From the NCBI GenBank assembly GCA_036172245.1, contig JAYWIR010000031.1, forward strand, positions 1,426,001 to 1,490,000: DNA of 64,000 bases, read 5' to 3'. This stretch comes from Raillietiella orientalis (lineage: Eukaryota). Shown here in pieces: positions 13 through 64,000 of this stretch (positions are counted from its first letter, which is position 1; every line of letters starts with the position of its first letter). The position numbers were made by a program, and so were the translations under genes. The notes under the pieces were generated by a model. That model worked only from the letters and a program-made list of their open reading frames with translations. It searched no databases and was not told the origin of the DNA.

Positions 13-16
13 GAGA

Positions 17-38
17 ATCGCTTCTCGGCCTTTTGGCT
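17..38 (+). pseudogene. U2 snRNA 5' fragment (nt 1-22); not a complete gene
   Basis: Exact ATCGCTTCTCGGCCTTTTGGCT, the conserved U2 5' end. The match stops at 38 and no further U2 body is recognisable after it. Confidence 0.9.
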
Positions 39-18245: not shown

Positions 18246-18331
18246 ACTAATATAGGCGAGTACTAATCACAAGCACAGTTACTAAACTGACGCAAACGAG
18301 TACTAATCACTTTTAAACCAGCACTAATCAC
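18246..18331. repeat. Iterated ACTAA(TCAC) motif at ~20-bp spacing
   Basis: CGAGTACTAATCAC at 18257 and 18297, and AGCACTAATCAC at 18320. ACTAA cores start at 18246, 18262, 18281, 18302 and 18323. Confidence 0.6.
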
Positions 18332-31410: not shown

Positions 31411-31464
31411 CGCCATCTTGCAGGAGAAACTCGGAACCCAAACGACGCAGTGGCGTCAGTTATC

Positions 31465-31531
31465 TGCCGAAGTATTCGAACCCGCGACGCGTGGTACCAC
31501 ACGCGGAAGCCTAAACCACAAGGCCTCCGAC
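31465..31531 (-). ncRNA. tRNA-like sequence with Pol III A/B-box-like motifs (not a functional tRNA)
   Basis: GTCGGAG pairs with CTTCGGC (7-bp acceptor-like stem, followed by A). D-arm GCC-TTGTGGTTTA-GGC, central arm CGCGTG-TGGTAC-CACGCG, and GGGTTCGAAT T-loop/B box. The 3' strand of the T stem is missing. Confidence 0.55.
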
Positions 31532-31601
31532 GCGGGCACCAGTGTTTCTTTCAGGAGGAATTCGAACCCACGACGCACCCTTATCTCTCGACGTCGATTC
31601 T

Positions 31602-31667
31602 TGCCGTGTATTCAAGCCCGCGGAGTCTGGTGCCACGCGTGGAGACCATAACCACGTGGCCTCCGAC
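31602..31667 (-). ncRNA. Second, more diverged tRNA-like head
   Basis: GTCGGAGGCCACGTGGTTATGGT...CGCGGGCTTGAATACACGGCA aligns with 31531-31465. It is followed by an extra B-box-like GTCGTGGGTTCGAATTCC at ~31574-31557. Confidence 0.45.
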
Positions 31668-32483
31668 ACTGGAGACCTCTCCGAAGAACAGGTCTTTGTT
31701 AACACGAAACAGAGAGAAGCCGAGAAGAAGGCAAGAGGATCGAAGAGCCGTTCTGAAAGCAAGCGCTTGAGGTGCTGTCGCAGAGGCATTCGGAGGAACC
31801 GAGAGTCATCGGGAGCGGGTCGTCCGGAAACCACAGCAACCGGTTTCCGTCTCGGAGGCGCTCGGGAGGGAGCCTGCTCCTCTAGAGGAGAGATTCATCT
31901 GAGCCGTGGGACCAAAGGAATTCTGGGGAAACGCTCAGGCAGAGGAGGTACGGCCTACTGCAAGCACCTCGCTGTTGTCACCGGAAAGGCTTCCTCTTCT
32001 GCCCTCCTGGAGTTTGGAGGACAGGTTCCTACTTTCCTTCAGCTCCGCTCAATCCAAGTTCTCTGACTGGCCGGAAGTGCGAAAAATGGGTCGCAGGAAT
32101 GTTTCCCATTTGTCCAGAAGCTCCGATTCAGCTTTCAGGATCTCCTCCTTGAGACAGTTCTTCAGCTGTGACGATCTTTCAAGAAAGAAGCAAGACGTGA
32201 GCAGATACTCATCTTCTTGCTCTCGGAGAGCTCCGCGTCTGGTGACCTCTGATAGCTTTTCGATTTCTCCCACTGGGAAGCATAAAATAGGTATAAAAAT
32301 CTCCCCTCCCTTCATCTCCTGACCGTTTCCTCTCTCCGTGCTGCTTCAGGGTAGCTCGATTGGAATCGGTCCAACCTCACGTCCGGATATCTTCGTACTT
32401 CATGCCACCCGAGAGGTTTCACCTCTACCAGAGGCTGTTCTCCCCTATTCCGGAAATCTGCCGATAAGCGAGTTAGCTTTGTT

Positions 32484-32515
32484 GGGGAGACGCATCGATC
32501 TCGATGCGTCTCCCC
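32484..32515. repeat. GC-rich perfect inverted repeat, 15-bp arms with a 2-nt spacer
   Basis: GGGGAGACGCATCGA-TC-TCGATGCGTCTCCCC. Confidence 0.9.
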
Positions 32516-43081: not shown

Positions 43082-45296
43082 GAAATGGCTCTCTCTGCAT
43101 GTATGGCTCTCATCAGTAAATAGATGCCTCCTTTTGGGGAACAGTATACTTCAATGAAGGTTTTACAGAAAAATGTGTGTCTGTCACATATACAGTGTTC
43201 AACATGTAAGAGTTTCAGTATTCGTACAGAATGGGAGTAAAAATTGCATTGCACTTGTTGAAAAGCTCAGAATTTATATCTGCAAACATAAAATCAGAAA
43301 TCATATCTTCAGATTTCCCAAAATCACAGTTGGATCCGGATAAATATTTAGTTAAATGACATGTGCATCAGAGGGGATGCATCATTTTATATCACAAACA
43401 CCTGTATCTTGTAACCTGTTATCTGCCCCATTCTTCTGACTTACATGCATTGTTTTCACCATTTCAAGCTTAAAGCCGGTCTTTAATAAAAGACTCAGCA
43501 AATGTATCACGAAAAAGTCGAAATTTTTTGTTTCTTCAAGTAGAATCAAAACCTCAACAAACAACATGTTTAACATTCATCAAAAACTCCAGATTCTGTA
43601 TGGCCAATTGAAATCTAAGCATTTAAATAAATTTGGACTTGAACTTTAACCAAAGAAATGATATCTAAGTTTATCATGTGTTTCTAAAATCGTAAGGCAC
43701 AGTACCAATTTGAAAATTAGTGTTGTACGTGTACCACTGGCGCATTTGTTCCCGTATTTTTGGGTTTTACATGGGCCCATGAACTACAAACCCCAACTAT
43801 CTAGATGTGATCCCAATGTCTTGCTAATCGCCTTTACATGATAATCTAGAAATTATCTGCATTTCAGTGGAAGCAGCTGGTTTTCCAAAAATGCATAAAA
43901 CTTGGTTCAGAGTGGTTTGGGGGTCGTTAAGGTTTGCGTTTGCAAGGGAGTACAGCATTCAGTGGAAAAGTCAACAGACCTGTATGTTGAAATTCTCTTT
44001 TGCTTGACATCAAAGATCAAAAGATATTGAAATATGATCAAAACACTGCTAGGCCAGCTGTCCTTGGTATTGCACCTTGCACTCCCCAATTGAGCGACTA
44101 GATACAGAATATCATCATCTTGTAACTATCGGAATGATTTGATGTGAATGTGAACAGTTGTTAACCAATGAGGTTTTGTGCGAGTTAAAAAAAAAAAAAA
44201 AAAAAAAAAAATCGTCGCAGACTTGCATCTCAGAAACGCCGAAGACGAATTTATTCTGTGTATTCTGGATTGCTTTCAGCATCTGAATAGACCAAATGTT
44301 GGACGCTCTCTAGGAGGATTCGAATTAAATCAACACGTTACTCAGGTATTGTGATACGTCTCATAGGGAGGGAATGAGGCATGAATGGCAATTCTGTCCC
44401 GCTGAAAAAATTAACCTGCAGTATGCTTGAAAGCCCCGAGCGTGTTTCGTATCGAATCGGAACGCTGTTTTTTTGTTTTTTTTTTTTTGAATGCAGTGCA
44501 GAACAGCATGCAGAAAAAGGTTCACGTTTGACTCGAGCGTGGCTGTGTGGCGGCATGTTGCGCGCTGTCTTCGAAAAGCACACCCCAAAAGGTAAATGCA
44601 TCCTTCTGCTGTGAGAGTGCCTTTTCTAATTCGGGCTCGGATCGTGTACGTTTGGTGGTCGTCGGCATCCTTCGCGACAAGGAGCAGACTCGGATTCCGT
44701 TTGACTTGGCCCTGCAACTCCCCCTTCGTCCTGGGGGATCCCCCAAGATGGGACGTTTTGCTGGTCATCATCGGAGACGGAACACGCGGCTACCCTTTCT
44801 TGAGATTTCGTGGCACCTCCTTGCGCCGCAGGGCAAACCGTGTCCTCCAAGATCTCGGGAAACCGATCCGAAGGCTCCAAGCGGTCTCGGTGCCTTCTTG
44901 GGTGATGGGTCTCGGTGTGTTTGTAGGTCTGATGCAGGTCTTAGGAATAATCATCATCTGCGGCTCACAGTGCAGACGTTTTATGGGTACGGCTAATCCG
45001 ACGCGGATGCTATGATTTTGGGAAAGTTTGTGCAACTGTTTGCAAAATTCACATTCTCACTGCTGGTTATGTGTAATTTTTTTTTGTAATATGAAAGCTT
45101 CTTATAAATTTTGGATTATTCGTTCAGAGTTGAGTAGCTCATAGTATATGGCGGCAACATTCATTTTGGTTTGGCAGGCTTGTATTCTGCAGTATTCAGA
45201 TATTTAATGCTTCTTCATTGGTTCGTACGGCAAAGTGTTTTTGGAAATTTTGTGTGAGGACCGACTGCCCCGTGTTTTCCCTTTTCTTCGTTTCCT

Positions 45297-46313
45297 TCAT
45301 TTTTTCGTTTCATTCCTTTTGGTGGAATCGAACCGCTTTTGGAAAGCGACTCTCTTTTCGTCACAGGACGCTTTGGAAGATAGGTAGATGGATGCTTTGA
45401 TGTTTTTGAGGCAACTCTTGACCTTGTTTGAAGCACTGCGTTGACCCCCTTCGTTCTCGGCTGCGTGTGTTTGCGCCTCATTACCATCCACCGGCGTGCT
45501 GATGGACGGCGAATCGGTGGATCGAGCACTTTCCTTGCTGTCTTGTGGCTGACCACTTTCACTTACCCTGCATCCACCCGTTCCTTGCGTAGAGGGGTCG
45601 GCAGTGTGGTTTTTCCTGGGTCGACTGGTTTGGGGGTCGCTGAAGCTGCTCTGCAAGTAAGCTTTCACCTGGGGTACTTGGGAAAGCAAGCGACCCAAAT
45701 CTGCTGCATTTCGGATTCCAATGACGAATTGTATGACCGCGTTCTCGTCGTCCTCAGAGATCAGCTTCTTGATGTTCAGATTACGAATTTTCATGTAGTC
45801 AGGGTGAAAAGGAACTTGAAAGGAAATCTTGAAAGGGTCCAGCATCCTTCTGAAAGATCCGTCGAATTTGAGTTTTGACTTTGAGGATGTTTGCAAGGTC
45901 TTTTCAGAGCCAGACTTGCTGATCTGTATCCGGGATTTGCTTCTCAGACTTGAGGCCTCGAGTGACTTTGGTCTGTTTTGTACTCTCGAATTTGCTTTCT
46001 TCAGTACACCATCTTCCCTTTTATAGGTACTTTTCGTTCCCATGTTGCTTTTTGCATTGCCGGATAGATTGCCTTTAAGAGCAGCATTCTGTCCCCTTTG
46101 AGATTCTTTCTTAAGTTTCAGTTCGATTTGATTCATGATATCTGTTTCTGTGAAGTCTTTGAAGAAAGTGTTTTTTGTTGCGTTACCATTGCATTTGGCA
46201 TCCAATCTACAAGTTTGATCCTGGGATGAGACGTCGTCGGAAGTAGAACAGTCATCTAAAGCATGTTTCAGCACATGAGTGCCAGTCAAAGGCAACGGTC
46301 CTTCCGTTTGCAC
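45297..46313 (-). CDS. Unknown Lys/Ser-rich ORF (338 aa); possibly an exon or pseudogene segment
   Basis: 1-kb open frame in sequence of moderate GC, with protein-like composition. It has no ATG start and no recognised domain. Protein-like but stop-interrupted frames continue upstream to ~46790. Confidence 0.4.
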   Translation of the reverse strand: MQTEGPLPLTGTHVLKHALDDCSTSDDVSSQDQTCRLDAKCNGNATKNTFFKDFTETDIMNQIELKLKKESQRGQNAALKGNLSGNAKSNMGTKSTYKREDGVLKKANSRVQNRPKSLEASSLRSKSRIQISKSGSEKTLQTSSKSKLKFDGSFRRMLDPFKISFQVPFHPDYMKIRNLNIKKLISEDDENAVIQFVIGIRNAADLGRLLSQVPQVKAYLQSSFSDPQTSRPRKNHTADPSTQGTGGCRVSESGQPQDSKESARSTDSPSISTPVDGNEAQTHAAENEGGQRSASNKVKSCLKNIKASIYLSSKASCDEKRVAFQKRFDSTKRNETKK

Positions 46314-49300
46314 GCTGTTGCTTTGCTTTCATAAAAAAGGTTGGAACGAGGTGTTAGTGGTTTTTAGCAGCATACCTGATTCACCTGCTCGTTTCTGAAA
46401 AAGTTACTTCTGTGGTTTGTCCTTGAATCAGGCTTTCGTAAGTTCTTCAGCAGGGATTCCAGATTTTCCACCTTCATCTGACTGTTTGTTAACTAAACAA
46501 GACATTTCTTTTTCAACCGATCATTCAGTTCCAAGAGCGGGATTATATCTCTTGTATTTATTATCTCATAGCCTTTACTGTGCTTCAGGTAATCCCTATC
46601 TTTCAGGCTCTAGGCAGGGTGTGTGTATTTGGTGTACGTAAATTTTTTGAAGTGAGCCCTTTGCGGTTTCATAGTCGGTTCGTCTGAATCATCAAACGCT
46701 GATTCAGTCAGTGTAGGTGCACTTCTTTTCGGTTACAACATATCCCGTCATTGGAAATTTTTGTCGCAAAATTTTCGATTTGGCCATGGATTAATTGATT
46801 TGCTGCTCACTTAAGAACGAATGTGTAGATTGTCTTAATGAAATTGGGCTGTAAAAAGAAGGCAAATTCAGAAATCGACATTCCTGTGCATACCACGAGA
46901 AAAGCGATTCGCCCCTCGTTTGTCCCTTCGGGGGACTCATGCCCGCCCAGAACGGCCTGGACTCGGAAAAGGTGATCTTCAAGCGTCAGAGCGACCTCGC
47001 CAAAATGATCGTGATGCCCTGCTTCGTACTAACCGGAGTTGAGTGGGAAGCTTTTCCCATTTCGTTGGTGGAGTTGTGCGAGAAAGTCGAGGTCTTTGGA
47101 GGTCTAACTTCCTCGTTCATCGGCAGTTTAAAAAAAATATCGGCGATGTGACTTTTCGCGTTCTGAAATCACCGTAAGGATCAGTGAGCATGCGGCGGAT
47201 CCGGTGCCTGGCGAAATGTCCCTTTGCAACTCTGCGATCCTCCTGACGAGTCGTCGCGAGGTTTTGACATTTCCAACAACACGTTTGCCTGACCACCGTA
47301 GTCGCACGAAACAGCTTGGAATTTTCTCTCACTGCTTGATCAGTAGCGACGGATTTCAACAAGTGCCTCCGGTTCAAACAAGGCAGCTTTGCCGCAAGAA
47401 GCTCGGGGCTGCGGAAGACTGCCAGCTGTATTGCGAGAACGGTGATCGTGAGCAGTCACAGGGCAGTTTAAAGAAGGCTCGGAAGTGTTTGCGAAAACGG
47501 GAAACGTGTTGCTCACTGAGGAAAGGAAAAGTGTGGCCAGCAGGAGCTGGAGCTGGCACCGGGAGTCGTCCCCCGAGCTCGTGCTGTTGAGTCGAACGGA
47601 AAGGAAGCGGTCACCAAGATGTTTCTCTTCCGAAGAGCACAGCGGAGGGTAACGTGGAAGCTTCCGGCTGTGTGACTCGGGAACTCCGCAAAGCCATTGC
47701 CACCCGGCCTGCTCCTGACAAGGGGGGAGACGTGCAGGTAGGCATTTCCTACCTCGCTCGCGTCTTGCAAGCTGAGCGCTCATCGCAGGATCCTCTCAGA
47801 CTTCCGCAAACGCCTCGATCAAGAGTCAGCGCATAGGTTGCTCGGAGCACACGTAGGCGGAAGACGGCAGCAGAAGGGATGGGTGTTTATCCTGTCACAT
47901 CCTACGGCGGATCCGTCAGCACCTGAGCTGCTGAGCGCACGCTTGGCTCGGAAAACGGCCGTCGCCGCCCAATTTCGCCTGCCAAACCTTCGATGTGGGA
48001 TGGCGCTGGCGGTTCCCCGATACACCGGCGGTCGGTATTCCTGGGCATGCGTGCGCAAGTGTGTTACGTGCCTTCACGAAGACCTTTTTGCGCCCGCGGT
48101 GCACGCGAAGATTTTTCAAACCCAGGTTTCTCCAAATCATCCCTTGGAGCCAAAATCGAAGCTGCCATGTACCAAATTGCAGTGGCAGCAGCCTCAGCGA
48201 TGTATCAGTAAAAGAAAAGGTATGAATTAGCAAAATAACGGTTCTGCAGTGCAGCGCTTGGGAGTGCCTGGTGTTTCGCTTGGTACTGAACACGGTGAGA
48301 ATTGGGTAGCAAGGAAGACCTTTCGCGTTAGGATGAAGGGGAACTCGAGGCACCGAGATGTCAGATCTGAAGTCGAGACTTCCAAGCGGCGGCAGTTCCC
48401 GTGGAGTCTTGAGCAAAGGAAGCGAAGAAAAGGGCGTGCACCGCCGGACCGGTGATGCAGGATCCGCGAGAACAAACTGCCGCCAGAGGGGGGGGGGAGG
48501 TAGAGAGAGGCACGAGAGCCTAAGGCGAGGTTGGCGGGGGAGACCTGTAAGAGAGCGGGAAAGAGGAGGAGAAACGCAGGGGCAGAGACGCCGGAAGCTC
48601 GGCTGGGGGGTGGGGCTTCCGGTGTCTGGGAGCGTGCAGCCCCCCGACGCCGGAGGCAATTCAGGCATTCTTAGCGTCCGCCACGTTCCCCGCCCTGCGC
48701 GTGCAGGAGGAAGAGGTAGAGGGAAGGAGAGTGGGCACCGAACCCGTGCAACTCTCAAGCTGCGCGTCTCCTTTCCGGGTTTTTTTTCTTTTCCCTTTTT
48801 TTTAGCTGAACACTGGAAGAGCCCGCGGATGCGTGAGGAACGCAACCTCGCAGGGATGGTGGTCGCGGATCAGGCCGTCCCTGCTGCCGCCTCTGCGGGA
48901 TGGGGGGGGGGGGGGAGAATCGAAGTGGAGCGACCAGAAGCGAGAACTCCAGGCGAGCTCCCTCTGTTGGCCTCCGCCAGCGAGGTGTGCTCCGAGCTGT
49001 CACATCCAGCAGCCAGGGTCGCGGGCGGAAAGCGCCGAAGACGCCCTTCCTACCCCACCTCGGGACCATTTTGCACACTCAACACTACTGACACAGCACG
49101 CAGCGGGTGTTTTTTGCATGCCTGTATGGGCCGGCGTCACCGTCTAACGGAGCGTCGCCTCTCAAAAGGAGATACGAGCGCGGCAGGGGGAGGCGTACCT
49201 TGTTGTTAGAGGAGTCCAGCTCCCTGGTCGCCTCCTCCAGCATTTTGGAGAACCTGTGCTTTTCGTTCTCGGAGTGTCTGCAGATCCTCGCCATCTCCTG

Positions 49301-52261
49301 GTTCTGGAAGAGCGAAGCTTTGGTGCATGGTTTCGAGCGTGGTCCCGGAGCAAGCAGGCAGGACCCGCTGGGGGAACCCTCCAGCGACCTTCGGAATACG
49401 GCGGTGCGATTCGCGCGCGCGCGTCCCGGAATTTAGCTATTGGGAGGAAGCGAGGGAAAGACTGACCGACTGCTCCCCGTCCGAGGGCGCTGCTTTCCGG
49501 AGCGATCCCCTGGTCTTCCAGCGAATGCAGCGGGATGCACCGTTCCTCCGGGTACCCCCCACGCTCAAACTCCGGAGGGACACCCACTCGCGTTGGGTCC
49601 CTCTCGCGTCTCCCCTCTCATAGGTGTTGCGAGCCACTACCACCGAGGTCGAAGCGAGTCTCGACGCCACAGTGGCGACTTCGGAGTGCAGGGCGGGGGC
49701 TGCAGTTCTCGTGTCTGGGTGACGGCTCCCCGCTATGTCTCGCCGAGCATGGGCGCGGGCCAGGGAGGACGTCCATGGCCGGCTCCCACGCCAGACCGAC
49801 GTCTCGAAGGAAGTGCGTGCGGAAGAGACCGCCGCCAACTCCATCATCGCGTTGCAAGTCTTCTCTCCCCTTCTTCCCATCATCATTGGCCCCTACCCAC
49901 CGCCTCTACTGCCCATCTTTTTCATCCGTGGCCTCTTCAGTGAGCGCCTTCCAGCTGCCTCCAAGCGCCCCTCCGCCCCAGGGAACAGGAAGTGCGCGCG
50001 CCTGCCCTCTAGCCTCCCCGAAGTCAGCGCACTTCCGAGGCTGTGGTTACTGCCACCTTCCGGAAGAAGATTACCGTGTTCTTCAGGGTCGAGATGACCT
50101 CTCTGGCCCACGTCAGTTCTGACCGCATCTTCAGCTCCGGTCTCATCTTCAGCTCTGACACGCTCTGCCCGGACGCCTCGCCGTTGGCTTCCTGAAGCAG
50201 GGAAAAACAAGAGAAAGGAGTATTAGGGGTGCACGTTCTCTCCCCCTCCTGCCTGCCAGCTACAGTCGACCGCACTTTTGGTCAGAAGGTCGCTGCTGAC
50301 GCCCGTCCGCTCGATCCCCTCCTTCGGCCACTCCGCGCTTGCCGAGCGCGTCCTTCGCGAGAAGAACGGGCCCGCTAGCCCTCCGCTGCTCCCTTCGTCT
50401 TCCCCGCTTCCCTTCCTTCCTCCGAGGGGACGGCGGATCGGAAGTTCCCACTCCTGTTTGGTCTGCTGGCTTCCCTCCAACCGTCCTCCGCGTCTGTGCT
50501 CCACTTCCCTTCTGCCTCTCAGGCTTCACTTCCTTGCCCTCCTCCCTGCATCTCCCTCGGTGTCGGTGTCTCTTCCTTCGCGGGCATCGGATGCTGGACC
50601 TTCTTTTGGAACCTGGAGTCTTCTTCGCGTGAGGTCGGAGGAGCGCACACTCACAAAAGAAGCCTCTTTCCGGTCCCGGAGCACGATGCGAGGAAGGTGC
50701 GTGCACGCGTATCCGAGCGCGCGAACAGTACTTAAATATATAAATAAATCGCATCTTCAGGATGCCATTTGTCGGTTCCTGTTTGCTCCCTACCGCCGAT
50801 CCATGGCGGGAATCCCCCCCCCCCGTGAGAAGAGATCCGTACTTGCAGTGACGCCACTGACAAGCGGGTGCCCAGGAACACGGGGAGCAGAAGCGACAGT
50901 AGCCGACTGCTCTCGCCTGCTCCACCTTCGTGTCTCGCTTGGCGCGCTCTGCGCATAACGCGATGAGCCACCGCGCAAGTGGAACAAGGCGGAAGATCCC
51001 GCCTTGTTCCTCGAGTCCGAGAATCGCCCTTCAGAGAGTGGGGCGTCCGGGGATTCCAGGAGGGAATGGTCTCGCCTGTGCTCTCTGCGTGGCCTCGACA
51101 AGGCGGCCGAGGCGGCAGAAGCTTTTCTCCTTCGCCGTAGGAACCACTGCCATACCCCTACGGTAGAGGGAGGGGAGGCTAACTCGGCGAGCTGGGAACG
51201 CATGGTGGCAAGAGTGCGCAAACTTTCGACCATTGGCTCAGCAACGCGTAGTGAAGGGCGGTGTTTCTGCGCGCTTGGAAAGTTGAAGGCGCGGCTGCAG
51301 GCTACGTTATCTGTCCCTTGTCAAGAGATGCTAATTAGAACAAAGATAAAACGAGCGGATTCCACGTAGGCCAACCTCCTCATTCCCAATACCGATTCAG
51401 TCAGTCTCCACTGCCGTCTGGCTCTGGGATCTGTTTGGGTTCGAGGACAGTCTCTTGAATTCATGCTTCTTCGGGAAGCATGCGTGCACTCGAAACAAAA
51501 AGGTTATCTAGCTGGCCAACTTCTCGAATGAAACTGCTGGATCAGTGCACGCTTTCCGAGTTTCAGCAGTATAAAAAATCGCAGGGTCGATCGAGACAAG
51601 TTCGATAACACGTCCCCTTGCCACTCCCGTCCATTTTTCTTTTTTTTCCTTGCTCTTTCCCTGTTAGTTCGGACTGGATCATTCCTCAGGGACATCTTCT
51701 GCAGACTTTGGCGGTTGATGCGTTTCGGTACCAAACACTGATTGATCCCAATGGCTTCCACGCGGAGCACATCCTTAATCTGTGCAAAAATTCCGCATCT
51801 CCGAGCTCGTTTCCTTTAAAATGCACATCTCGGAAAGTGCGGCGTAAGATTTGAAAAGATGAAACGTAAAAAGGATACAGAATTTAAAAGGGAACTGGGA
51901 GACCCTGACAAGCGCAAAGCGGAAACGATTTCCCGTTCACTCTGCGCACGTGTTCGGGGCGATCCTGCAAAAAAAAAAAAAAAAATGGCTGGCCTCCTCT
52001 TCCGTTAATTTGGAGCACAGCGCGTCCTTGTGCGACAGATTTTGTGGTGTTCGCGAACTGAAACGCAAATGTGCCCCTTATTAAGAAAATGCTCAAAAGC
52101 TTTCGATTTTGCGTACGTTTTCAGAGAGGCAGGAAAAGGAAAAGTGCAGTGTGTGTGTGGATGTTTCACGTCACTTCCGCAGCCGCAGAATCCGTGTGCT
52201 GCGTTGAAGGCGCTACGGCTACCTCAATGTCACTTTCAACTCGCGACACAGTCAGCGTGAT

Positions 52262-52325
52262 TTTTTCTTCTTCTTCTTCTTCTAAAACACACACACACAC
52301 ACACACGCGCGCGCGCAGACACACA
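52262..52325. repeat. Compound microsatellite (TTC)n-(CA)n-(CG)n
   Basis: Read directly: ttcttcttcttcttctt...acacacacacacacacacacgcgcgcgcgc. Confidence 0.85.
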
Positions 52326-55300
52326 CTTTCGGAAAGAGCGTTTCCCCTTCGGAAACGGAACAGATCGGAATCGCTCATCCTTCTGGGATAGACACCGATC
52401 GCAAAAAAAAAGAAAAAAAAAAAAGAAAAAAAAAAACACACCCACATATTCGTGCTAAGAGGATGAGCGCGATCAGAGGTTATTTATAGGCCTTTGTTGA
52501 TGACTCCTCCATAAATTCTAACAAGCTTATCTGCAGATTAAAAATATCGGCCTCGCTAGGAATAAATTCAGGAGGGTTATCTTGAACGAGGGAGGGAGGG
52601 AGGGGGGGGGGTGACGTCGTTCCCACTCCAGAGTTCTTTTTCTCTCCAGGGTTCGAGGGAGACCTCGGGCGACTTTCTACGATTCCCAGCCTTCGGTTTT
52701 TCCCGCGAGAAACGTGTCTCAGCATCACTTTGTCTCAGCGAAGGGCTACTTTTGCTTGCTTGGGATGAGGGAACCCCAGGGATCTGACGGAAGCAAAATA
52801 AAGTGAGGCAAGCAAACGAGAAGGGGGGCTGTTTTTCTTTCTTTCTTTTTTTTTTTTTTTGCTTTGCGCCCAGAAAAAAAAAAATCTCTGATAATTTGCT
52901 GTCTCGTTCCACGGTGCCCGATGCATCTTTGCGATCCTCGCCATCAATCATCATCCCGGAAAAGCCAAGCGAGATCCATCCAGCTTCCCGGCTTTGATCG
53001 TCCTGTACCTGCATCGCGTCGCTCGGGAAACCGGCGACTTCCCCTCATCGTGCCCATCCCTCCGTGAAAGAGTGAAAGGCGGATGCCACGCCGTTTCCGA
53101 TGGCAGCCATGGGAGCGCCTCCTCCGAAGAGCTTCTATTTATGGGTTCAGAGAGCGTACCGGCTCCATTCTAAATGTCTATTAATAGATCAGGCAACAAA
53201 GAACTCGGCAGGTTCTTCGTGGGATGCTATTGGCTGGGTGCAGCGGGGTCAGGGAGGCGCCATGATTCGGCTCCGCATTGTTCTTCCGAGAGTGTTGCGA
53301 GGTGTCTCCGCGGTATGCTTCAGCGCCACTGCCACCACCTCTCTCCCTTTCGCACTTTTTTTTTTTTTTTTTACTTTTTCGTGCGTGGTGTGGAGGGAAA
53401 GGGGAACAGGGACTTTACCGTGTTTCCAGAGAGGATGAGGGTGATTCCTGCTCGCCCCCCCCCCTTTCCTCGTCCTTTTCGAACTACCATCCCCTTCCTC
53501 GTCGGACGCGCGCGAAGTGCCCGAAATTAAGGCCGAACTACGCAAGGAGGATGGTGGTAAGGGGGAGGCTGAGAAGGGAAGGGATGGAGACGCACGCGGA
53601 AGCCTCCCTGCCTTCGAGGCGATTCCCCGGCCTCGCTGGGCACTTCCCAGGACGGGCATTGCTGGAGGCCGGCGGATGCCACGCATGATCCGGAGGCAGG
53701 AAGCTGGGTACTGCCCGGGCGAAGCGGACTGCCGCCTCTGCCCCCGGCCAGCATTCACGAAGGAGGCCGACGTCCGGACTGGGAGCGGCTGGTTCGCAGC
53801 GAAGCCACCCGCGAAAGAAGGACGCGAAGGTCAGACTACGGGGACCGGTGCTTCCGACGGTTGCGAGAACGAGGGAAGGAAGGACCGCTTCTTCCCCGTG
53901 GAGGAGGGTGGCTGCTTCCTGCCAACCACCCGCTGAGCAGGGGGAGGGCGCCCATCCCGTTCCGGACGGGGGCAGTGCGGGACTTGAACAGAGGGGTCAT
54001 CCCCACCCTTACTGCCCCGCGGCGCTCGGAGAACCACTGGGCGCTCCCTTGTCCAGTTTCCTCTCCCCCCCCAGGGCATCACGTGGTCTCGTGGCCATCC
54101 CACAAGGGACGCCCCCGCCAAACTGTGAAGGAGGAAGAAACGAGGAGTCGGACGCTCAAGGGGATGACCAGGATGGGCTGCTATGCAGACATGAGGGGGA
54201 CAGGGGGATTACCTCGTCCTCGGTCCTCGAGGGTTTGTCTCCTGCCTCTTCCCCTCGAGCAGGGACGTCGTTGGTCTCCAGGCATCGCAGGGACTCGAAC
54301 TGCTTCCTGGCGGCGTCCAGGCTCAGCCTAACCTTTCTCAGGGTCTCCTTGGTCTCCTGGGACTCCAGGAATCCCTCGGGCAGTCCCTCGTGTGCCAGAG
54401 GCCCCTCCCCCGAAGCGACTGAGGTCGTCGTCTCCCATCTAGTCTGCGGATCCACGTCCATCTCTCCTCGTCTCTCTTTCCCAGTCCTCAGGGTGGAAGC
54501 AGGATGAGAAGGCAGGTGCGGGTAGCGGCAAGGTAGAAGCTACCCCCAAACACTCGCACGTATCCATGGAAACGCCGGTGTCTCGAGAGTCCCGTGGCCC
54601 ACCTTCAAAAGGCCTGCGCGTCTGTGCGAGAGCTCCCCTGGAAGGAGCCCCCATTATCTTCCTTGCCTCCGGCGCTAGCTGGCAAGTCGTGGCTGCTGCG
54701 ACTCCGAGCCCGCACCTGCGGCGGCAGCAGCAACAGGAGAGCCTTCAGCTGCTTCCCTCCTCCACCACCACTGCACCACCTTGTGGTTGATGGCGCTTCG
54801 ATCTACGAGCCTTCCGCTCTTCCACAGCTTCCTCCCTCGTGGGTCGCCTCCGCGGGCCGCCCCTCTCGGCTCACACCTGTCGACTGATTGCTCCTGCTCC
54901 CGGAAAAGTACCCGGCGGACCTGCGAGAGCGCAGGTGAGGAAGCGGTGCCTCCTCCTCTCTGCTGGCGTCGAGATTAAATCCGGAGTCGGAGGCGGAACC
55001 ACCCTGCACACGCTGCTGCCACCCAGCGTGGGAGGCGGGGGTCGTCCCGGAACGGAGACGCTCTCTCCTCACCTTCTCCTGGCGGAGGGGACGGCGACAT
55101 GTCTCCTCAGGCAGTGACCGCGGCACAGGGGAGGAAGAGAAAAGAGAAGGACTTTTGGAAAGCACCGCACTTCCGCTCAAGGGACGAGATGGGAGGTTAC
55201 CCCCTTGAGGCTCGCCTGCGACCCTCCATCCTGCCCGCCGCCAGGCGCCGCGGCGATGCAGGGGGCCCTTGGCGAGCAGATCTTCCGACGGGAAGTCTTT

Positions 55301-56729
55301 TGTGAGACCCCTTCCTGTCTGCACTGGGACGGTGGCTGGATCACTACGCGACCCCTTCAAGGATGGATAAGGGGACGGCCGCCTTTCGGGAGCACCCGAG
55401 GTGTCACTACCCCTCGGAAGCCCACGGTCGGTAGGCAAAGGCAATGCAGAGACCACGGGGGATGGGGGTCTGAGTGTGCACGCCGGGGAGCTCCTCCCCC
55501 CTCAGAATGGGTCGCATCCCCTTCCGGTAGGAGGTCTTGGACTCCCGCCGACGTCTCTCTCCCACTGACTTGCCCAGCGGCGCTGCAGAAGGAGGCGGAG
55601 AGGTCATCTCGATCGCCTCACGGGAGAGGCGCAACCCTGAGAGGTTCCCTTGGGGGAGAACCGCGACTTCAGCCCCATGCGGAAGGGGACATTCGTGAAC
55701 CAGCCGGCGACAGTGCTCGTACCTGCCCTCCATCGGGAAGGGGAGCTCCGCTGCCCTCCGAGAGAGGATTCGGAGGAAAGCGCCACCTCGGATGGAGGGG
55801 AGCATTCCTCGGGGCGACCTCATGCCCGCGATCCACTCTCGCAATCGGAAGGGGGGGAGGGCGGGTCTCTTGTGCACAGAGAGAGAAATCTCTTAGGTGA
55901 AACAGTGGAAGAGGGAAAGGACAAATCACTGTGGACCTCCGGTCCACACTGATTCGCCAGACAGTTACGCCGGAGTCCCCTCTGTTCTCGTAGGAGGAAG
56001 AGGGGTAGGATTAGGAAGAAGAAGAGGAAGAAGGGAAGGATGAGGAAGAAGAGGAGGAAGAGAAAGGGTGTAAGAGAAAAGGAAACCTCCTCTCTCGGAA
56101 AGACTGTCGCCTTCTCGGCACGTGGCAGTCGGTAGGCGCTTGGAGGGCCTCGGGGCAGAAACGAGCCAGAATGCTCCAGGCCAGAGGACGAGCGGCACCA
56201 GCGAGGCAGTCAAGAGCAGATGAGGTACATTTTCCCAGAGGATCCGGACAGCATCGTGGAAGTGTCTGAGCACTGCCACGTTGTGGGAAAAGGCGCAACT
56301 TGCCGCTCGTCTCCCGCTCGCGTCTCGGAATGTTGGAGTCCGGGTAGGTGGGACCCAGAGAAGTGAAGGACTACAAGAAGAGATAGGGCCGGTCCACGCA
56401 GGCCTGGTGTCTTCACCTCCGGGCTTCTCACGGAGGGCTGTCGACGACGGGGGCGAGACGCAGCTGCCTCCTGGAGAGCTCAGTGAAAGGTGTGACTCCT
56501 CTACCTGGGTCTGGTGACCAGATGGGCCCTCGCAACATAGCGGAGTGCCTACGAGGTTCGGTCTGCGCAGCTGCCACCGTCACTCCTTGCGTAGCGCCCT
56601 GCTCGGAGCAGTGGAGGTGACTCTCGGGAGGGAAAGGTAGTGCAGGAAGATCGAATCCGCATCTGCTTCGGCCGAAAGGGACTTCGGGAGGGGCATTGCC
56701 CTTAACGCTGTCCAAGAGTCCGTCCACAA

Positions 56730-56877
56730 CCTCTTCCTCTTCCTTTTCTTCCTTCTTTCTCCTTCCTCCTTCTTTTCTGCCTTCCTTCATTTCCTCCCTT
56801 TCTTCTCTCCCTCCCTCTCTTCCTCTTCTTCCTCCCCCTACTCCTCTTTCTCCTCTTCTTCCTCCTCTTCCTCCTCC
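56730..56877. repeat. Polypyrimidine (CT-rich) low-complexity tract
   Basis: About 150 nt almost entirely of C/T. A purine-rich tract also occurs at ~55990-56085. Confidence 0.85.
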
Positions 56878-56989
56878 GGAACTGGGGAGGACACCGACAG
56901 CAAGTCAATGTAGACTACTGTCAGGTTCCCGTAGCAGATGAATCCTCCGTTCTCCCTTCCCTCGGTCTGACCCCGAGACTTCCTGCTCC

Positions 56990-57420
56990 AGGAGCACGTT
57001 CTCCTCCCTCCTCCAGCCGCAGTTCCTTCTTGCCGACGGGGTCGTGAGACCCTTCAGATTTTTCTACCACCCCCCGCCGAGCACGCTTGCAGACCCCGGA
57101 GCAGAAGCGCTCAGGACTCTCGGGGAAGCGTTCCGGATCCTTTTTTTCTTCCCGAACTCCCTTTCCTTCGGCCAACTCTCCCTCCCGAATTTCCCGCATC
57201 CGATCCGCCCTCTTCCTGTCTTTCCGGGAACGTGGCGTCGGATGAAGGAGGAGCTTCCGCGGGCGGCGCCGTGCCAGTCGTGCCAGGAGACGCCCCTTGG
57301 AATGTTCACCTTGGATATCTCCATCGCACGGAGGCGGTCCTCCCGCAGCGCGCCTTGCCCATAGCAACGATTCCTGGAAGACCCCCCTCCGTGAACTCAT
57401 TGGGCTGGCGGGCTCTTTGA
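56990..57420 (+). pseudogene. Decayed paralog of the ORF interrupted at 60791; represents the empty insertion site
   Basis: 57241-57374 aligns with 60706-60791 joined to 62985-63024. MKEELPRAAPCQSCQETPLGMFTLDISI matches MKEEELPPCQLC*ETPHVMLILDTSI, and IATIP follows in both. Confidence 0.65.
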
Positions 57421-60400
57421 GTCTGCTGATCCTGGCCGATTGCTTGATGCCGGCCGTGGTTCCTTCGGCCCGGACAGAGAGAGCGCGAACATTCAACCTC
57501 TCCATGACCCCCTGTAGACAGCTGCCTCGGGCTGCCGGCTGGATTTCCGGATGAAACCTTCACGAGACTCCCCAGGACCCTCTGCGCGCGGTGATTGCAA
57601 GGGGGGTGGTCTAGCGCCGATGCGAGGAGTCTGGGGAGGGGGGCAGAGGCAGGGTAACGAACCTCCATCCGACGGTGAGAATCCCGGGCGCACCACGGGA
57701 GACTCGACCACCTCGACAACCCAAGTCGAGCCTCTGGATGGTCGTGCCCGCCGCAAGGAGGCGCGGGTCCTCCTCATCTTTCTCCCCATTTTTCTCTTCC
57801 TCCTCCAAAACTGGGGAGGACACCGACATCAAGTCAGCATAGATTACTCACCGCGGCGAAAGCATCCCGAGTCAATAGAGGTGGGAGGTGGGAGGGGAAG
57901 GATCGTTTCCTGTGTTGGTCAGTGGCGCGCTTTAACCCCCCCCCCCCTTTTTCTGGGGGCAGCATGCGGAGCCGTTCCGTACGCGCGCGCGGCTCGGCTC
58001 AACCCAACCCACTGGCCACACCCACCAGAGACGGCGCCGGCGGCATGCGCAGGAGGTGCGCAGTTCGCGGCAGGAGTCCCTTCCGCACGTCCTCGGGGGT
58101 AGCGCGTGCGCGCAACTCCCACGCCGCCTCTCGGCTCCGCGGTGAGTAGGCAAGCAAGCCTCGAAGGGATAGCGCTGGGAGCTACTGGCCCCCAACTGGC
58201 TGCAGCCTCCAGCCTCCGACCGGATCTCGAGCTCCGGGAAGAGAAACGTGTGCGATCGGGCGCGACGTGGACTGCCCGCTGAGTGTGGCCCAGAGGACTT
58301 GGAAGCATTCCGAGGGGGCACAGGAGGGCGAGCACTGGGTTCTGGGGCCTTGCGCTTGGTCTCCAAGGGAGCCTCCGACTTGACACTAGCCACGCTCCGC
58401 CTTGGGTTCTCCGACTCAACACGAGCCACATTCTACCTTGGGACCCGACAAACCACGAAATACTGAAAGGACTCGAAATCTCATGGAGGAGAGCCGGAGA
58501 CTCGAAGGAGATGGAGAGAGGTAAAATCGACCACTCCAGGGGATGCGTTGGACCCGACCTACCGTGGGAGGGTGGGGAATCAACGTGGAAAATAGATCGT
58601 GGGTGTGGAAACCGCAGAAAATTTCCCTCCGCAGCAGGAATTTCCTTTGTAAACAATCCTGCGAAAATGAAGGGAAAAGATGCCTCCAGTGCTCCTGCCA
58701 GATGCTTGCTTGTGGTTTCCTGTCCGCAAAGATGACCAAAGGCGAAGACCAACGGCGCAGCATATGGACGGTAGGCGCCCAAGCATCTGTGCGAACACAA
58801 GCGCGCCGGATACTCGAAGAGTTGCCATCCCCGGAGGACTGATGGACACGTGAGGCGCAAAGTGGTCCTTCTCCTTGGCAACGTGGACACTTCTCTTGAT
58901 CAGATTCGGTCGGAAAAGGAGCTCTGGCACGCATCGAATACTGGACCGGTCAAGGAGTGTCGCGATCCTCCAAGCAGAAGGGCAAAGGAATGTTCCTGTG
59001 CTGACTGCTCGGAGGGGTGTCGCCCGTGCGCCGCCAGACGAGGCGGGCAACTTCGCCGCGAAGAGCTCCTCGAGCTGCTAAACATCTTCGGATCGAGTCT
59101 CCGGGACCACTCCGAGCAAGGTGGGCCATGAAAAGCACGACGCCTTCACACGCATATGTTGAAGCATATGTTATTACCCGGCATTTCTCAACCGAAAAAG
59201 ATCACCCCGAGGGGTGCACTAAGAAACGCGCAGTCTCTGGATGGACAGGCATCCGAAAGGATGCAAGTGTGCTGGACGCTCGAAGAGCCAGAGTAACCTC
59301 AGGAGGATATGGCGCGCAATGGACGCAGGAGGAGTAGAGGTCAGCATGCAGTTCAGGTGAGAATCCTCTCCTGCTTCCGCTTCTTGTACGCCGGCGATCA
59401 CCTGCTTGCTCCAGCCGCCCTGCACGGGCGCTGCTCGGTTGACCGTGCGGGCGGGCGGCTGCCAGCAGGAAGCAGCAGGGGATGCGTGCAGGGGGCGCTC
59501 GGCACGGGAAGGGTGCATCCTGAACCGTGGCGGGCGAGATTCCAGCTTGCTCGCTGAGGGGTGTGACCACCTGAACTGTTGCATCGAGAGTGGGAGTCGG
59601 TGGTCCCCGGGAACGGCCGACACAGGGAGTAAGACCAAGCCGGGAATCCGGCAGCCGGACCTCGTTCCTTTCCAGGGCGGATCATCGTGCTGGACGGTGA
59701 CTGCCCATGCGAGAGCGCGGCAACAGTGCCAGAGGAAGCGCAGCGAAGGGAAGGAACCGCGTGCGGGGGGGGACCTCGGTCCTCTCCCATCTGTTCGCCG
59801 ACAGAAGACCTCGGCTAGGGAGCTGGCGGCAGGGTCCTCGGGAGACGAAGATTGACGGGAAGTTCAGGTATCGTCGTCTCGACGGTCCTCGCGCATGCGG
59901 GTCGAAAAACCCGACGAGGAGGAGGGTGGCGTACCAGTGCTGCCGGGATGCTTACTGGGGTCGGAACGACCTACCGACGGCGAGCCCCCGGAAGGATGAC
60001 CAGAAGACGGGAGTCGGGGAGGGTCCCCTGGACCCTACAACTTTCACTGCCCTCACGGAAAGCTGACTGAACCACCCACATGTGAAGAATAAGCCGACGA
60101 ACCCGGACCCCCCTCGCCCCCCCTCCTTCCACGGAGAGCGCCGTTGCCCGGGAGAGATGCTGTTTCCTGCCCAATCGAGCGTGCGATCCCGCCTCTGCGA
60201 GAGTAGGCTGGACGAAATCTCCACGGCAACCCACGGTCCATCGCCGTTTCCCGAAGCGGTCGTTCCTCCCGCCCACCTCCTGTCCTGCAATGGCCGGCGC
60301 GCGCGAGCGCCTGGCTCCGGGAAAGAGCGCGCCTCCCTTCCTGGGACTCTCCGGCATCCCCTGCTTGGACCGGGGTCCACCTGGAAGAGAGTGCCGCTGC

Positions 60401-60782
60401 ATACTTCCCGTCTTGCACCAAGTGGTCTGGCCGTCCCGCGCCCCTCGCGGTTGCCTCAGTCCGCACGCCTCCTCCTCGCATCACCCGAATCCCCTCCGCC
60501 ACGATGGGAGGGTTGTGGACCCGAGGGAGAACGCCCGTGACGATGCTCAGATGTGCTGCGAGTCCATCCTGTGCGGAAGGATCGCCACAAGAGGCCCTGA
60601 GCAGGTGCGCGCCCTGAAAGCGGTCCTTCTCACGAACCCCGGAAACTGCTGCTCCTTGGGCTCGACACGCCGGCAGCCGGACCCGGCTCTCCAGGACGAG
60701 GGTCAGATGAAGGAGGAGGAGCTTCCTCCATGTCAGCTGTGCTAGGAGACGCCACATGTAATGCTCATTCTGGATACCTCTA

Positions 60783-60791
60783 TCGGATGGG
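60783..60791 (+). repeat. Left target-site duplication TCGGATGGG
   Basis: An identical 9-mer lies at 62976-62984. The paralog has a single equivalent (TCGCACGGA, 57324-57332). Confidence 0.85.
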
Positions 60792-60793
60792 GA

Positions 60794-60817
60794 CTTTTGG
60801 CTAAGATCAAAGTGTAG
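60794..60817 (+). pseudogene. U2 snRNA fragment (nt 14-37) forming the 5' junction of the retrotransposon
   Basis: Exact CTTTTGGCTAAGATCAAAGTGTAG, directly abutting RT-coding sequence. Confidence 0.92.
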
Positions 60818-62970
60818 ACCGACCTTTACGATGGATCTGTGACCACCTTTAGAGGGCCGACTAGGGCAACAGCACCGGTGGCTATCCGAGCAGGTGTTCG
60901 ACAGGGCTGCCCCCTCAGCGGCCTCCTGTTCAACCTGGCGTTGGAACCCATCCTATCCACCCTCTCTGACCGGTGCCCAGACTGCGTCTGTCTCGCATAC
61001 GCGGACGACGTATCGCTCGTCTGTGAGTCCCCTCAATCCCTCCAACGTGCTCTGGATGTGCTTTATTACGCGTCGGGGAAAGGTGGGTTGCGAATAAACC
61101 CAAGCAAGTGTGACTCCTACCACTTGGTGCATCAGCGCCCGGCTGGCACTCGGCCCACGACCTTTCGGGTGTGCAACGCCCCCATTCCCGTAGTGGAGGA
61201 CTCTGATGTCTACTCCTACCTTGGAAAGCCGGTGGGCTTCTATGCCCTCGAATCGGATGCCGGGGAAACACATATCCTTGACTCCCTCCAGAGACTGATG
61301 GACTCCCCCCTGACCCCCTGGCAAAAACTAGATGCCCTTAAGGTTTTCTTCTTCCTTGCCCTCACGCACTCCTTCCGGCTAGGGCATAAATCCTTGGCCT
61401 TCTGGAAGTCGTTGGTCAAGAAGGTGAAGGACATAGTGAAAACACAAATCCTATCCTTGCCTCAGTCCGCCTCCTTGGAGTACCTATATACGGCCTCCAT
61501 GTACGGAGACATGGGCTGCTTGCTGCTCCAGGAGGAGAGCGCCATCATGACGGTGGACTCAGCATTTAAGTTACTGACGAGCCCGGACCCCATGATCACG
61601 CATCTGGTCCTCCACTCTCTACGGGACGCCGTCTCCCGAAGATCAAAGTGCCCCCCACCAACCTGCTCCTCTCGCGCCACCTCAATGGGGACTGCGATTC
61701 CTCACTCAACATTCCCTGCGGCGTTCCCCGTAGCTTCTGGTCCGCAGTCCGGAGCACCTCCAAGAAACTTCCTGTCCCCTGGATGCTACAGGATGACGGC
61801 GTGGAACTGATCATGGGCGGTAGGAGGATCACCATGTACCAGAGGCATCAAGTTGCTTGCAGCCTCCACAACGCCAGAAGGGACGACAGACTTGTCTCCT
61901 TCCTGCAAAAGCCCGACCAGGGAAGAATCATGGACTGTGTATGCCTCTACCCTGCATCCACTGGCTTTCTGCAACGATGTGAATCTTTGCGGTTCTCCGA
62001 CTGGAGGTTCATCCATCATGCCCGCCTTAACCTCCCCCTTAACGGGAATATGAAGCGTGAGAGCTTCCTCGAGAGTTGCCGCAGGTGCACGTTGCCCAAA
62101 GAAACTCTGTGTCACGTAATTTCCCACTGCCCCTACCACCTGGGCTCCCTCATCAAGGGACGCCGCGATGCGGTCCTCTCCCTGCTCCTAGATGCCGCAC
62201 GCGAACGTTGGCCCTGTGTTATGAGTGACCAACAGGTCGAAGATTCCAACTCCCCCTAAGGCCCAACCTGATCGCCCGGGATGGCCAGCGCGTGGTAATC
62301 ATCGACGCCTGCATCCCTTTTGAAAACCGACGGGAAGCATTCCGCAATTCGCGGGCTGAGAGAACCAAAAAATATGCCTTGCTTGTCGAATACTTCAAGA
62401 CCAAGGCTTTGCTGTTTACGTGGATGCAATTGTGGTGGGCTCCCTGGGATCCTGGGGCTCCAAAAATGACGAGTCAATCTCCCGCCTTGGCATCCCGGAT
62501 ACGGTGGCGACAACTTTGAGGAAGGCGGCAATCGCCTCCACGATAAGATGGTCAAGGGATATCTACTCCTGCCACATCGAGCGCCAAACCCCCCCTGGGC
62601 CCTCTACCCCAACAGAAGCCCCTAGTGAACCTGATGCCTCCGAATCCGGTCCGCAGCTTTCTGTCCCCAAACCCCCGCAAGATCCCCAGCCTGCAAAGCC
62701 TACACTGGAACAACGGTCGCCCTGGGAGTCACTTATGGTCCACCCAACACGTGAAGAAACCCCGCCGTTACAGCTGAGGGAGCGGAAAACTGCGACTTCA
62801 TATTCTGCTTCCATGGACCTAACCCACCCACTCATTGATGCCAGAGCCTCAATCAACTGATTGAAGAGATTAAGCCTTAGCGATTCAATTCACGAGCCGC
62901 CGCAAATACCGTAACCCCTATTTATACCTCTAGGAGAGGAAACAATGTAAATCCAAAAAGCAATAAAGAC
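60818..62970 (+). mobile_element. 5'-truncated, frameshifted RLE-type non-LTR retrotransposon, Utopia (NeSL clade)-like
   Basis: RT motifs GVRQGCPLSGLLFNL, LAYADD and YSYLG. WRFIHHARLNL, then the CCHC knuckle CRRC...ETLCHVISHC. Restriction-like endonuclease RPNLI...VIIDACIPFENR...KKY, then AIVVGSLGSW and IRWSRDIY. About 3 frameshifts (~61650, ~62255, ~62420), AATAAA at 62962-62967, and U2 sequence at both ends. Confidence 0.9.
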
Positions 62971-62984
62971 TATCTTCGGATGGG
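62971..62984 (+). repeat. U2 nt 38-42 (TATCT) followed by the right target-site duplication (62976-62984)
   Basis: AATAAAGAC|TATCT|TCGGATGGG. TATCT is the exact continuation of U2 after GTGTAG. Confidence 0.75.
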
Positions 62985-64000
62985 AACGATCCTCTTGCAG
63001 CGTATTGTCCATAGCAACGATTCCGAAGGGAATGCAGATGGCCTCCCACCGTCCCTGTCCGTCCTTCCTCGCTAGGCAGCGCAGCGCTGCGACTGGATGT
63101 GCGGCGGTGTTGACCCCAAGCATATTGGAAGCCTTGGAGACCATCCCAAGCTCGTCCGTTTCCAAGAGCCGGATGGGACCAAGCTCTCGAAAGCTTCGCG
63201 CTCCCTGCCGTCACCGGGCGCCCTCACACTTTTACTCCCTTCTCCACCTCTCCGAGCCTGCCGGTTGCCGTGGAAGCCACCGCTTCCCCTCCGAGCCGTC
63301 CTGCACCGAGGAGTGACGTCATCGTTCGAATTCCTCCCTCGTCCCTCCTTCCGCTCTTCCGTGCCCGGAAGAAATGATTCGATTCCGGTCCCGTGATGCC
63401 GTGCATTACCGTTTTAGGAGGGGAAGCGGGGAAGGAAGACAAAAAAAACGGGATAAGCCGGGATGAGCCCGCGAGGGAACGCTCCGCCAGTCCGCTGCTG
63501 TCCGGAAAACGCGATCGCGCGGAGCACTTCGACCCCTCAGAGCACCCCTGCTCTGAAAGGTCGAACGAGGGAACGATCTCTCGTCTCACACCCGGGTGGA
63601 TTGGGGATTCCCCGTCCGTCCAAATGCGCGCCCCGCGATGCGGCAAGGGACGCCTCGAGGGTGCTCCTGTTCTCGCCCGGCACGCGTGACCATTCCGCCG
63701 GCGTTGGTCACGCAGATCATCCGCCCTTCCGATCGCGGCGCCCGCGGGGAAGAGGGTGGCTGTCGCGCTGCACCCCGTCTATCGCCACCCCGGACCTCCT
63801 TCCCCCCACCTCGATCGTTCCCTCCGCTTCCCAGGCTCTGCCCCCGGGAGTCCTGTCGTCCGGGAAGGGAGGGGGAGCGGTGCCTGTCCGCGCGGATTGA
63901 TCGATGACTCCCGCCGCCCCATCCCTGCAAAGCGCGCGGGTTTGCCGAGACCAATCTCCGATCCCTCCCGCAATCGGAAGGACAGCGCGATGGCAGGAAG

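Follow-up and report, generated by a model that had tools for sequence, protein, structure and literature searches.

We describe a retrotransposon cassette in a 64,000-nt stretch of Raillietiella orientalis DNA (the window; positions are counted from its start). In this cassette, a broken copy of a Utopia-type retrotransposon sits outside any U2 gene, and it is wrapped in short pieces of both halves of the U2 target site. The most economical origin is the co-mobilization of the target flanks. We tentatively propose, at a little below an even chance, that the cassette arose by a single off-target retrotransposition of a chimeric U2-element-U2 transcript, derived from a truncated Utopia copy in a U2 gene. 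A route through a miniature target that was already in place is a serious rival. The locus is a natural experiment that bears on how a site-specific retrotransposon recognizes its target and how its template is built.

Anatomy of the cassette

The cassette extends from 60783 to 62984 on the + strand. Its layout in the initial annotation (duplication, GA, U2, element, U2, duplication) is confirmed base for base. The two copies of the 9-bp target-site duplication, TCGGATGGG, locate at 60783–60791 and 62976–62984 and match perfectly. These are the only exact copies of the sequence in the 64-kb window, both bracketing the cassette, and shuffled sequences contain a mean of 0.40 per window.

Next to the first copy, a GA filler (60792–60793) precedes the 5' U2 piece, CTTTTGGCTAAGATCAAAGTGTAG (60794–60817), a segment of 24 nt that corresponds to U2 small nuclear RNA (snRNA) nt 14–37 in fly numbering. 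The GA is not U2, because the 5' end of the host U2, of which nt 1–22 are readable at 17–38 of the window, reads GGCC at nt 11–14. The 5' U2 piece is identical to fruit-fly U2 at 23 of 24 positions (Kojima and Jurka, 2015, S1 Fig), and it agrees with the Rfam U2 consensus except for one additional A. The positions assigned earlier to the two U2 pieces (nt 14–37 and 38–42) hold in fly-type numbering, which includes the extra A. The 19-nt core of the 5' piece is unique in the window even at three mismatches, and it finds matches in 0 of 100 shuffles. Rfam returned no U2 match on 60600–63200 at E up to 10, since the U2 pieces are too short.

The 5' U2 piece stops at GTGTAG, within the branch-point-binding sequence GUAGUA. 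It is followed by the element body (60818–62970; 2.15 kb), which is 5'-truncated and frameshifted, with GATCAAAGTGTAG + ACCGACC as the sequence across the junction. The element ends in AATAAAGAC, and its final bases are GAC (62968–62970). The following TATCT (62971–62975) represents the next five bases of U2, nt 38–42, resuming exactly where the 5' piece stops. Alternatively, TA may be the end of the element and TCT alone U2 (nt 40–42), because published Utopia 3' junctions are precise and, in arthropods, resume at TCTG (PMC4640811, in part). The earlier claim that no U2 base was lost or duplicated is correct if TATCT belongs entirely to U2. If TA is the element's own, 2 bp of U2 are missing.

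A genuine insertion at a U2-like nick

A diverged paralogue of the cassette flanks, approximately 70–80% identical, locates at 57214–57392 (+). The paralogue reads ...GGATATCTCCATCGCACGGAGGCGGTCC..., while the filled site reads ...GGATACCTCTA, TCGGATGGG, the cassette, TCGGATGGG and AACGATCC.... In the place of the duplication, the paralogue carries a single ATCGCACGG, without U2, TATCT or the element. The cassette is therefore a genuine insertion, and the original site was ...CTCTA|TCGGATGGG|AACG.... Judging from the duplication, the first-strand (bottom) nick fell at CTA|TCGG, and the other strand was cut 9 bp further downstream. This insertion nick resembles the U2 nick, GTA|TCTG, with which it has TA|TC and the G at +4 in common.

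We also considered that the arrangement is an artefact or due to chance. The locus may be an assembly chimera, or TATCT may be filler or encoded by an element ending in GACTATCT. Of the three frameshifts in the element, two fall where C is repeated five or six times, the sort of tract in which long-read assembly errors typically arise (the third is a clean 1-nt loss). The element itself could also supply TA, or the whole of TATCT, as its terminus. However, the perfect 9-bp duplication exactly flanking the cassette and the clean single-copy site of the paralogue argue for a biological insertion. Chance is ruled out for the 24-nt U2 match. By our own arithmetic, the agreement of the five bases behind the element with the next five of U2 has a chance of 1 in 1024 for one register. 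We regard an artefact or chance as the least probable of the explanations weighed here.

A decayed element truncated within the reverse transcriptase

The element had been described as carrying reverse transcriptase (RT), zinc-knuckle and restriction-like endonuclease (RLE) regions and as truncated mid-RT, and our domain searches agree with this description. The Pfam family RVT_1 matches at E 7.1e-18, over profile positions 111–194 of 205 only, and the copy is thus truncated mid-RT. The RT and thumb occupy 60818–61654 (+) in frame 2, starting from the truncation point at 60818. In tblastn, this segment is approximately 41% identical to residues 633–909 of a 1219-aa tick protein. Judged against the same protein, about 630 residues and the 5' untranslated region are missing from the element.

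The tblastn queries comprised ten tick, spider and aphid proteins plus two Logan proteins. Homology continues through the thumb, the CCHC knuckle CRRCTLPKETLCHVISHC and the RLE region (RPNLIARDGQRVVIIDACIPFENR...KKY), shifting frame three times (2 to 1 to 0 to 2) and meeting no in-frame stop. The linker and the CCHC zinc knuckle locate at 61669–62250 (+) in frame 1, where CRRCTLPKETLCHVISHC aligns with the consensus CRRCGYxxETLPHVLxHC of a 25-sequence alignment. The RLE region (62256–62590, +) lies in frames 0 and then 2 and reads RPNLI..IIDAC..FEN..KKY, then VVGSLGSWG. The corresponding consensus (25-sequence alignment) is LRPDLV..DVTCPFENR..KxxKY..VVGALGxWD, and the aspartate of its PD is N in the element. 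A TGA stop (62858–62860, +) is followed by the 3' untranslated region (62861–62970, +), which contains AATAAA at 62962–62967 and ends in GCAATAAAGAC.

Upstream of 60818, a BLAST alignment extends the RT homology back to 60752 with 9/22 identities. We rejected this extension as chance, because four of the nine identities belong to the duplication and the U2 piece, the stretch is interrupted by a stop and no RT motif lies ahead of it.

In the coding region of the element, we notice the stretch AAGATCAAAGTG (61639–61650, +), whose 12 nt recur unchanged in the U2 piece. It adjoins the first frameshift, beside a run of six C. A U2 match of 12 nt within the element was reached by 5 of 5000 element shuffles, and the stretch is not seen in L001, a metagenomic relative described below. 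The identity may be due to chance, or it may be left over from a recombination or a switch of template that involved U2.

Kinship with a U2-inserting element

To place the family, a 274-aa query was compared with known proteins, of which 376 among 3038 candidates matched at E up to 0.001. A second search of shorter proteins gave 140 among 1158 candidates. The best relatives are tick and spider elements, with 38–42% identity over all 274 aa and scores of 184–211 bits, compared with 57–64 bits for solved R2 proteins. In both searches, no protein exceeded 42% identity across most of the query, and the second search found nothing closer. Short segments of the matches reach up to 63% identity over 16% of the query.

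The element is also related to an element inserted in U2. In a scan of metagenomes, 560 stretches came up as candidates, of which 390 were confirmed and the best 80 were kept. Among these best 80 of 390, L001 is the only close relative, with 40% identity over residues 2–268 (169 bits, BLASTP) and an intact open reading frame (ORF) of 1719 aa. L001 ends in ...GGTAATAAAA (3' end ...GCGGTAATAAAA) and is followed by 150 nt of U2, starting from ATCTGTTCTTATCAG. This flank scores 63.4 bits in Rfam against a cut-off of 46 bits, and the junction is at the canonical site. L001 also has AATAAA or a near variant a few bases ahead of the U2 junction, and so do several published Utopia families (PMC4640811, in part). 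Rfam was applied to three of the 80 loci and found U2 in one of them; L002 and L003 end at the contig edge before the 3' junction. The U2 5' motif was present in none of the 80 loci, and the 5' junction of L001 falls off its contig. At this contig edge, positions 1–360 of L001 comprise approximately six tandem repeats of about 60 bp, which run into the long ORF.

The tree contains 110 rows, consisting of the window element, L001–L003 and 106 of 120 protein matches (14 that cover fewer than 230 residues were left out), and it includes no labelled Utopia, NeSL or R2 rows. Here the element forms the sister branch (SH-aLRT 80) of a starred clade of 92 rows, to which L001 and sequences of ticks, spiders, crustaceans and aphids belong. 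The branch of the element is long (0.84). The placement beside a U2-inserting clade is suggestive, not conclusive.

Hassan et al. (2026; PMC13188248) distinguish Utopia by N-terminal zinc fingers without the Myb domain of R2. The N-terminal half of the element is absent in the window copy. Among four relatives that were scanned, Pfam found Myb in none and gave weak, sub-threshold C2H2 zinc finger matches in three, with no such match in L001. On the basis of its relatives, the R2 scores and the domain scans, together with the U2 flanks and the AATAAA near the junction, we file the element as putatively Utopia-type and as a candidate new, divergent family. The family is not among the printed Utopia families, because the sequences printed in the supplement of Kojima and Jurka have no AATAAAGAC-type end. 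Their paper also bears out the statement of the initial annotation that Utopia elements target this region of U2 (PMC4640811, in part).

Within the window, blastn with the cassette matched nothing besides the cassette itself, and the ten relatives used in tblastn matched nothing besides this element. At a relaxed threshold (E up to 5), 1–4000 and 18000–24000 gave nothing credible.

Origin of the cassette

We favor a single off-target event because it requires one event rather than two, and because the insertion nick resembles the U2 nick. The model explains both U2 pieces within one duplication, their exact complementarity, the likeness of the nick and the bounded length of the flanks. The source would be a 5'-truncated Utopia-type element at the canonical site of a real U2 gene. 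Since arthropod Utopia insertions show no U2 duplication and have precise 3' junctions, such a copy would match the interior of the cassette. Its transcription would yield an RNA that contains the 5' part of U2, the truncated element and the start of the 3' part of U2. The RT and endonuclease of an active copy may then have captured this RNA in trans by binding to the 3' untranslated region of the element.

The off-target nick on the bottom strand at CTA|TCGG, whose position is given by the duplication, would provide the site of entry. Reverse transcription probably started a few bases into the U2 3' flank, resulting in TATCT or TCT, and would have run on across the dead element and along the U2 leader as far as nt 14, where GA was added. 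The top-strand cut 9 bp downstream, also evident from the duplication, would complete the duplication of TCGGATGGG. The 5' U2 flank of 24 nt is shorter than the 37 nt possible for a transcript from U2 +1, and the 3' U2 flank stops 8 nt past AATAAA.

Several observations weigh against this single-event model. The cassette has a 9-bp duplication, whereas arthropod Utopia insertions in U2 have none (PMC4640811, in part). By our own reasoning, if the nicked end of the DNA just annealed to the U2 flank of the RNA, the extra TCT would be left unexplained. There is also no poly(A) despite the AATAAA 8 nt upstream. A stick-insect study judged the trans-mobilization of dead R2 copies unlikely (PMC4370867, in part). 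The element is sister to the clade of the U2-inserted L001 and not nested within it, in a tree without labelled R2 or NeSL rows, and the protein collection contains no family member above 42% identity over the full length. Finally, the route by which a mini-U2 came first has a published precedent, and the window holds a second short U2 fragment.

In this route of two events, a mini-U2 (about nt 14–42) inserted first with the 9-bp duplication, and a Utopia element then recognized this miniature target and placed a 5'-truncated copy at the canonical point, adding no further duplication. The mini-U2 would come from U2 snRNA retroposition, possibly primed at an off-target Utopia nick. The precedent is a crocodile and gharial insertion in a U2-like stretch of about 40 nt, which is present in the empty alligator orthologue (PMC4640811, in part). 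The route requires that the Utopia element left no duplication, consistent with arthropod Utopia, which makes none (PMC4640811, in part). Moreover, a pre-existing TATCT gives a canonical 3' junction with no extra TCT to explain, and U2-derived fragments occur elsewhere in the window (nt 1–22 at 17–38, and inverted nt 25–36, approximately, at 1–12). On the other hand, two rare events would have to meet at one spot, and it is unusual for U2 to give rise to an internal retrocopy of 29 nt that lacks both ends. The likeness of CTA|TCGG to the U2 nick would be a coincidence, unless Utopia made the first nick too. The paralogous site is without mini-U2, but this shows only that any mini-U2 came in after the divergence of the paralogue. 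We consider the two-event route possible, with a chance lower than that of the single event.

A template jump would also join U2 to a truncated element. Here the RT would have copied an element RNA with a short U2 3' flank and, at the broken 5' end in the RT region, jumped to U2 RNA or to a U2(1–37) fragment released from a co-transcript, which it copied to nt 14 before the product was integrated. Such jumps have parallels in vivo, where R2 5' ends carry 156 nt of U12 snRNA, tRNA-Lys with CCA or 18 nt of tRNA-Gly (PMC3414825, in part). Chimeras of long interspersed nuclear elements (LINEs) and snRNAs are common in vertebrates, including an internally truncated U5 (PMC4476161, in part). However, the U2 piece stops exactly where TATCT resumes, at the Utopia site, for which we estimate a probability of about 3 in 190 if the landing point was random along some 190 nt of RNA. 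A jump from end to end arrives at the 3' end of the new RNA, which in U2 lies about 150 nt beyond. A template jump is therefore quite improbable in our judgement. Of the two origins offered in the initial annotation, we prefer the retrotransposed chimera and keep the prior mini-U2 alive; the template jump to U2 RNA was not listed there.

An extension of the favored single-event model is that the cassette belongs to a mobile non-autonomous lineage, composed of a U2 leader, the 3' half of Utopia and a U2 stub, that is transcribed from an occupied U2 gene and spread in trans to U2-like TA|TC sites. We find such a lineage unlikely. If it existed, a strictly site-specific element would escape its safe harbour while carrying both target halves. 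In that case, U2 nt 14 plus GA would mark a defined point, about 24 nt upstream from the junction, at which the RNA begins, as the Utopia counterpart of the 13–36-nt 28S leader of R2 RNA.

Surroundings of the cassette

At the start of the window, ACACTTTGATCT (1–12) is the reverse complement of approximately nt 25–36 of U2. It is followed by GAGA and then by ATCGCTTCTCGGCCTTTTGGCT at 17–38, which corresponds to U2 nt 1–22 on the + strand and overlaps the U2 piece of the cassette perfectly. Past position 38 the sequence departs from U2, and the remainder of the fragment is beyond the window edge. The first 22 nt are thus inverted with respect to what follows, an arrangement like that of a U2 pseudogene that was twin-primed or rearranged. 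On window positions 1–300, Rfam scores U2 at just 10.2 bits (E 9.5). A further 13 nt of the same U2 core, AGATCAAAGTGTA, locate at 19996–20008, isolated in AT-rich DNA. This match may be chance, as part of it belongs to TGTACACGT, which is directly repeated nearby (19932 and 20005).

Two GC-rich blocks (50–64% GC) at 24000–34000 and 44000–64000 interrupt DNA of 28–38% GC, and the cassette is in the second block. Pfam found a family in none of the 22 and none of the 99 ORFs of these blocks. Two A-runs (44187–44211 and 52403–52436) are both located in the second block. At 29324–29454 (+), starting from about 29275, we observed a diverged piece of eukaryotic 28S rRNA from around the sarcin-ricin loop (Rfam LSU, 69.1 bits). 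It stands alone in its GC-rich block, with no further rRNA pieces found within 22–35 kb. On the - strand, an uninterrupted, intron-free ORF of 1803 aa (7840–13248) encodes a RalGAP alpha-type protein with Rap_GAP and RALGAPB_N domains. Its identity to arthropod orthologues is at most about 54%, over the C-terminal 500 aa, so that the protein points to a host that is probably an arthropod or another protostome without near relatives in the protein collection.

Implications for target recognition

Site-specific RLE retrotransposons such as R2 and Utopia are under development as tools for safe-harbour gene insertion, so their target recognition, and its failure, matter. If the cassette arose in one event, the RNA template of a U2-specific element held target sequence on both sides, and a dead, truncated copy was mobilized in trans. 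Meanwhile, the enzyme would have accepted a site that shares only TA|TC and one further base with U2. If the cassette arose in two events, a sufficient natural target would be bounded at about 24 nt on the upstream side of the nick and 5 nt on its downstream side. Under either reading, the locus is a single natural data point, at one old and decayed locus, and a variant of known mechanisms.

Comparison with known systems

Utopia comprises RLE non-LTR retrotransposons of the NeSL clade that target U2 snRNA genes (PMC4640811, in part). The window element resembles Utopia in the order of its domains, with the RT followed by the CCHC knuckle and then by an endonuclease of the PD-(D/E)xK type. Both the RLE and the CCHC knuckle are C-terminal to the RT, although in this dead copy N has taken the place of the PD aspartate. 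The U2 flanks are split within GUAGUA|UCUG, and AATAAA stands shortly before the 3' junction, as in Utopia. At this junction, ...AATAAAGAC is followed by TATCT, with GTGTAG upstream, although the 3' U2 is short, at 5 nt. The relatives are found in ticks and spiders, taxa with described Utopia families. Unlike Utopia, the copy is located outside a U2 gene, retains only 24 + 5 nt of U2, has about 40% identity at best to its relatives and carries a 9-bp duplication. In the literature searched on Utopia with ribozyme and on U2 chimeras, paper figures and Repbase sequences excepted, we came across no account of a Utopia copy that has both halves of its target.

Weakly specific Utopia families insert off target at U2-like sites, and the off-target crocodilian insertions show residual similarity to the U2 site (PMC4640811, section 8 and S4 Fig, in part). 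Like the cassette, these copies are 5'-truncated and lie outside U2 genes, at sites similar to TAGTA|TCTG. The crocodile and gharial copy within the U2-like stretch of about 40 nt ends in ...GTGTAGTA|TCTCT (PMC4640811, S4 Fig, in part). Its U2-like bases already existed in the empty alligator orthologue, whereas the sole empty site of the cassette is a diverged paralogue without U2 bases. In the figure and section cited, duplications of the crocodilian insertions are rarely recognizable, in contrast to the perfect 9 bp of the cassette.

R2 offers a parallel to the single-event model, since its RNAs begin with 13–36 nt of 28S target from upstream of the element, and the R2 enzyme adds non-templated bases as it runs off the RNA (PMC3774820, in part). 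Short internally deleted elements (SIDEs) of R2 are non-autonomous derivatives that are mobilized via the 3' untranslated region (PMC3774820 and PMC3414825, in part). According to these excerpts, R2 copies with a leader and SIDEs stay inside the rDNA, whereas the cassette is outside its target. The 28S leader of R2 is made by a 5' ribozyme, which the truncated window copy cannot have. R2 inserts into 28S rDNA; the flanks of the window element consist of U2 and non-genic DNA, and the only rRNA-like piece is 31 kb away. Keno, an L1-clade element with an apurinic/apyrimidinic endonuclease (APE), shares the U2 insertion site (PMC4640811, section 6, in part). Its APE-type endonuclease is N-terminal to the RT. 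The window element has a C-terminal RLE, and all its relatives are of the RLE type, its own N-terminus being absent.

In layout, the cassette fits a U6/L1-type template-switch chimera of snRNA and LINE, in which an snRNA piece and a 5'-truncated element are enclosed in one duplication and the breakpoint bears no relation to a target site. In the cassette, however, the breakpoint is the element's own target site and U2 resumes after the element. In the 5' and 3' transduction of L1, transcription starts upstream of the element or overruns its end, so that flanks of the source are found inside the new duplication. The cassette departs from L1 transduction in that its enzyme is a site-specific one of the RLE type, in that it lacks poly(A) and in that the DNA transduced is the target of the element itself.

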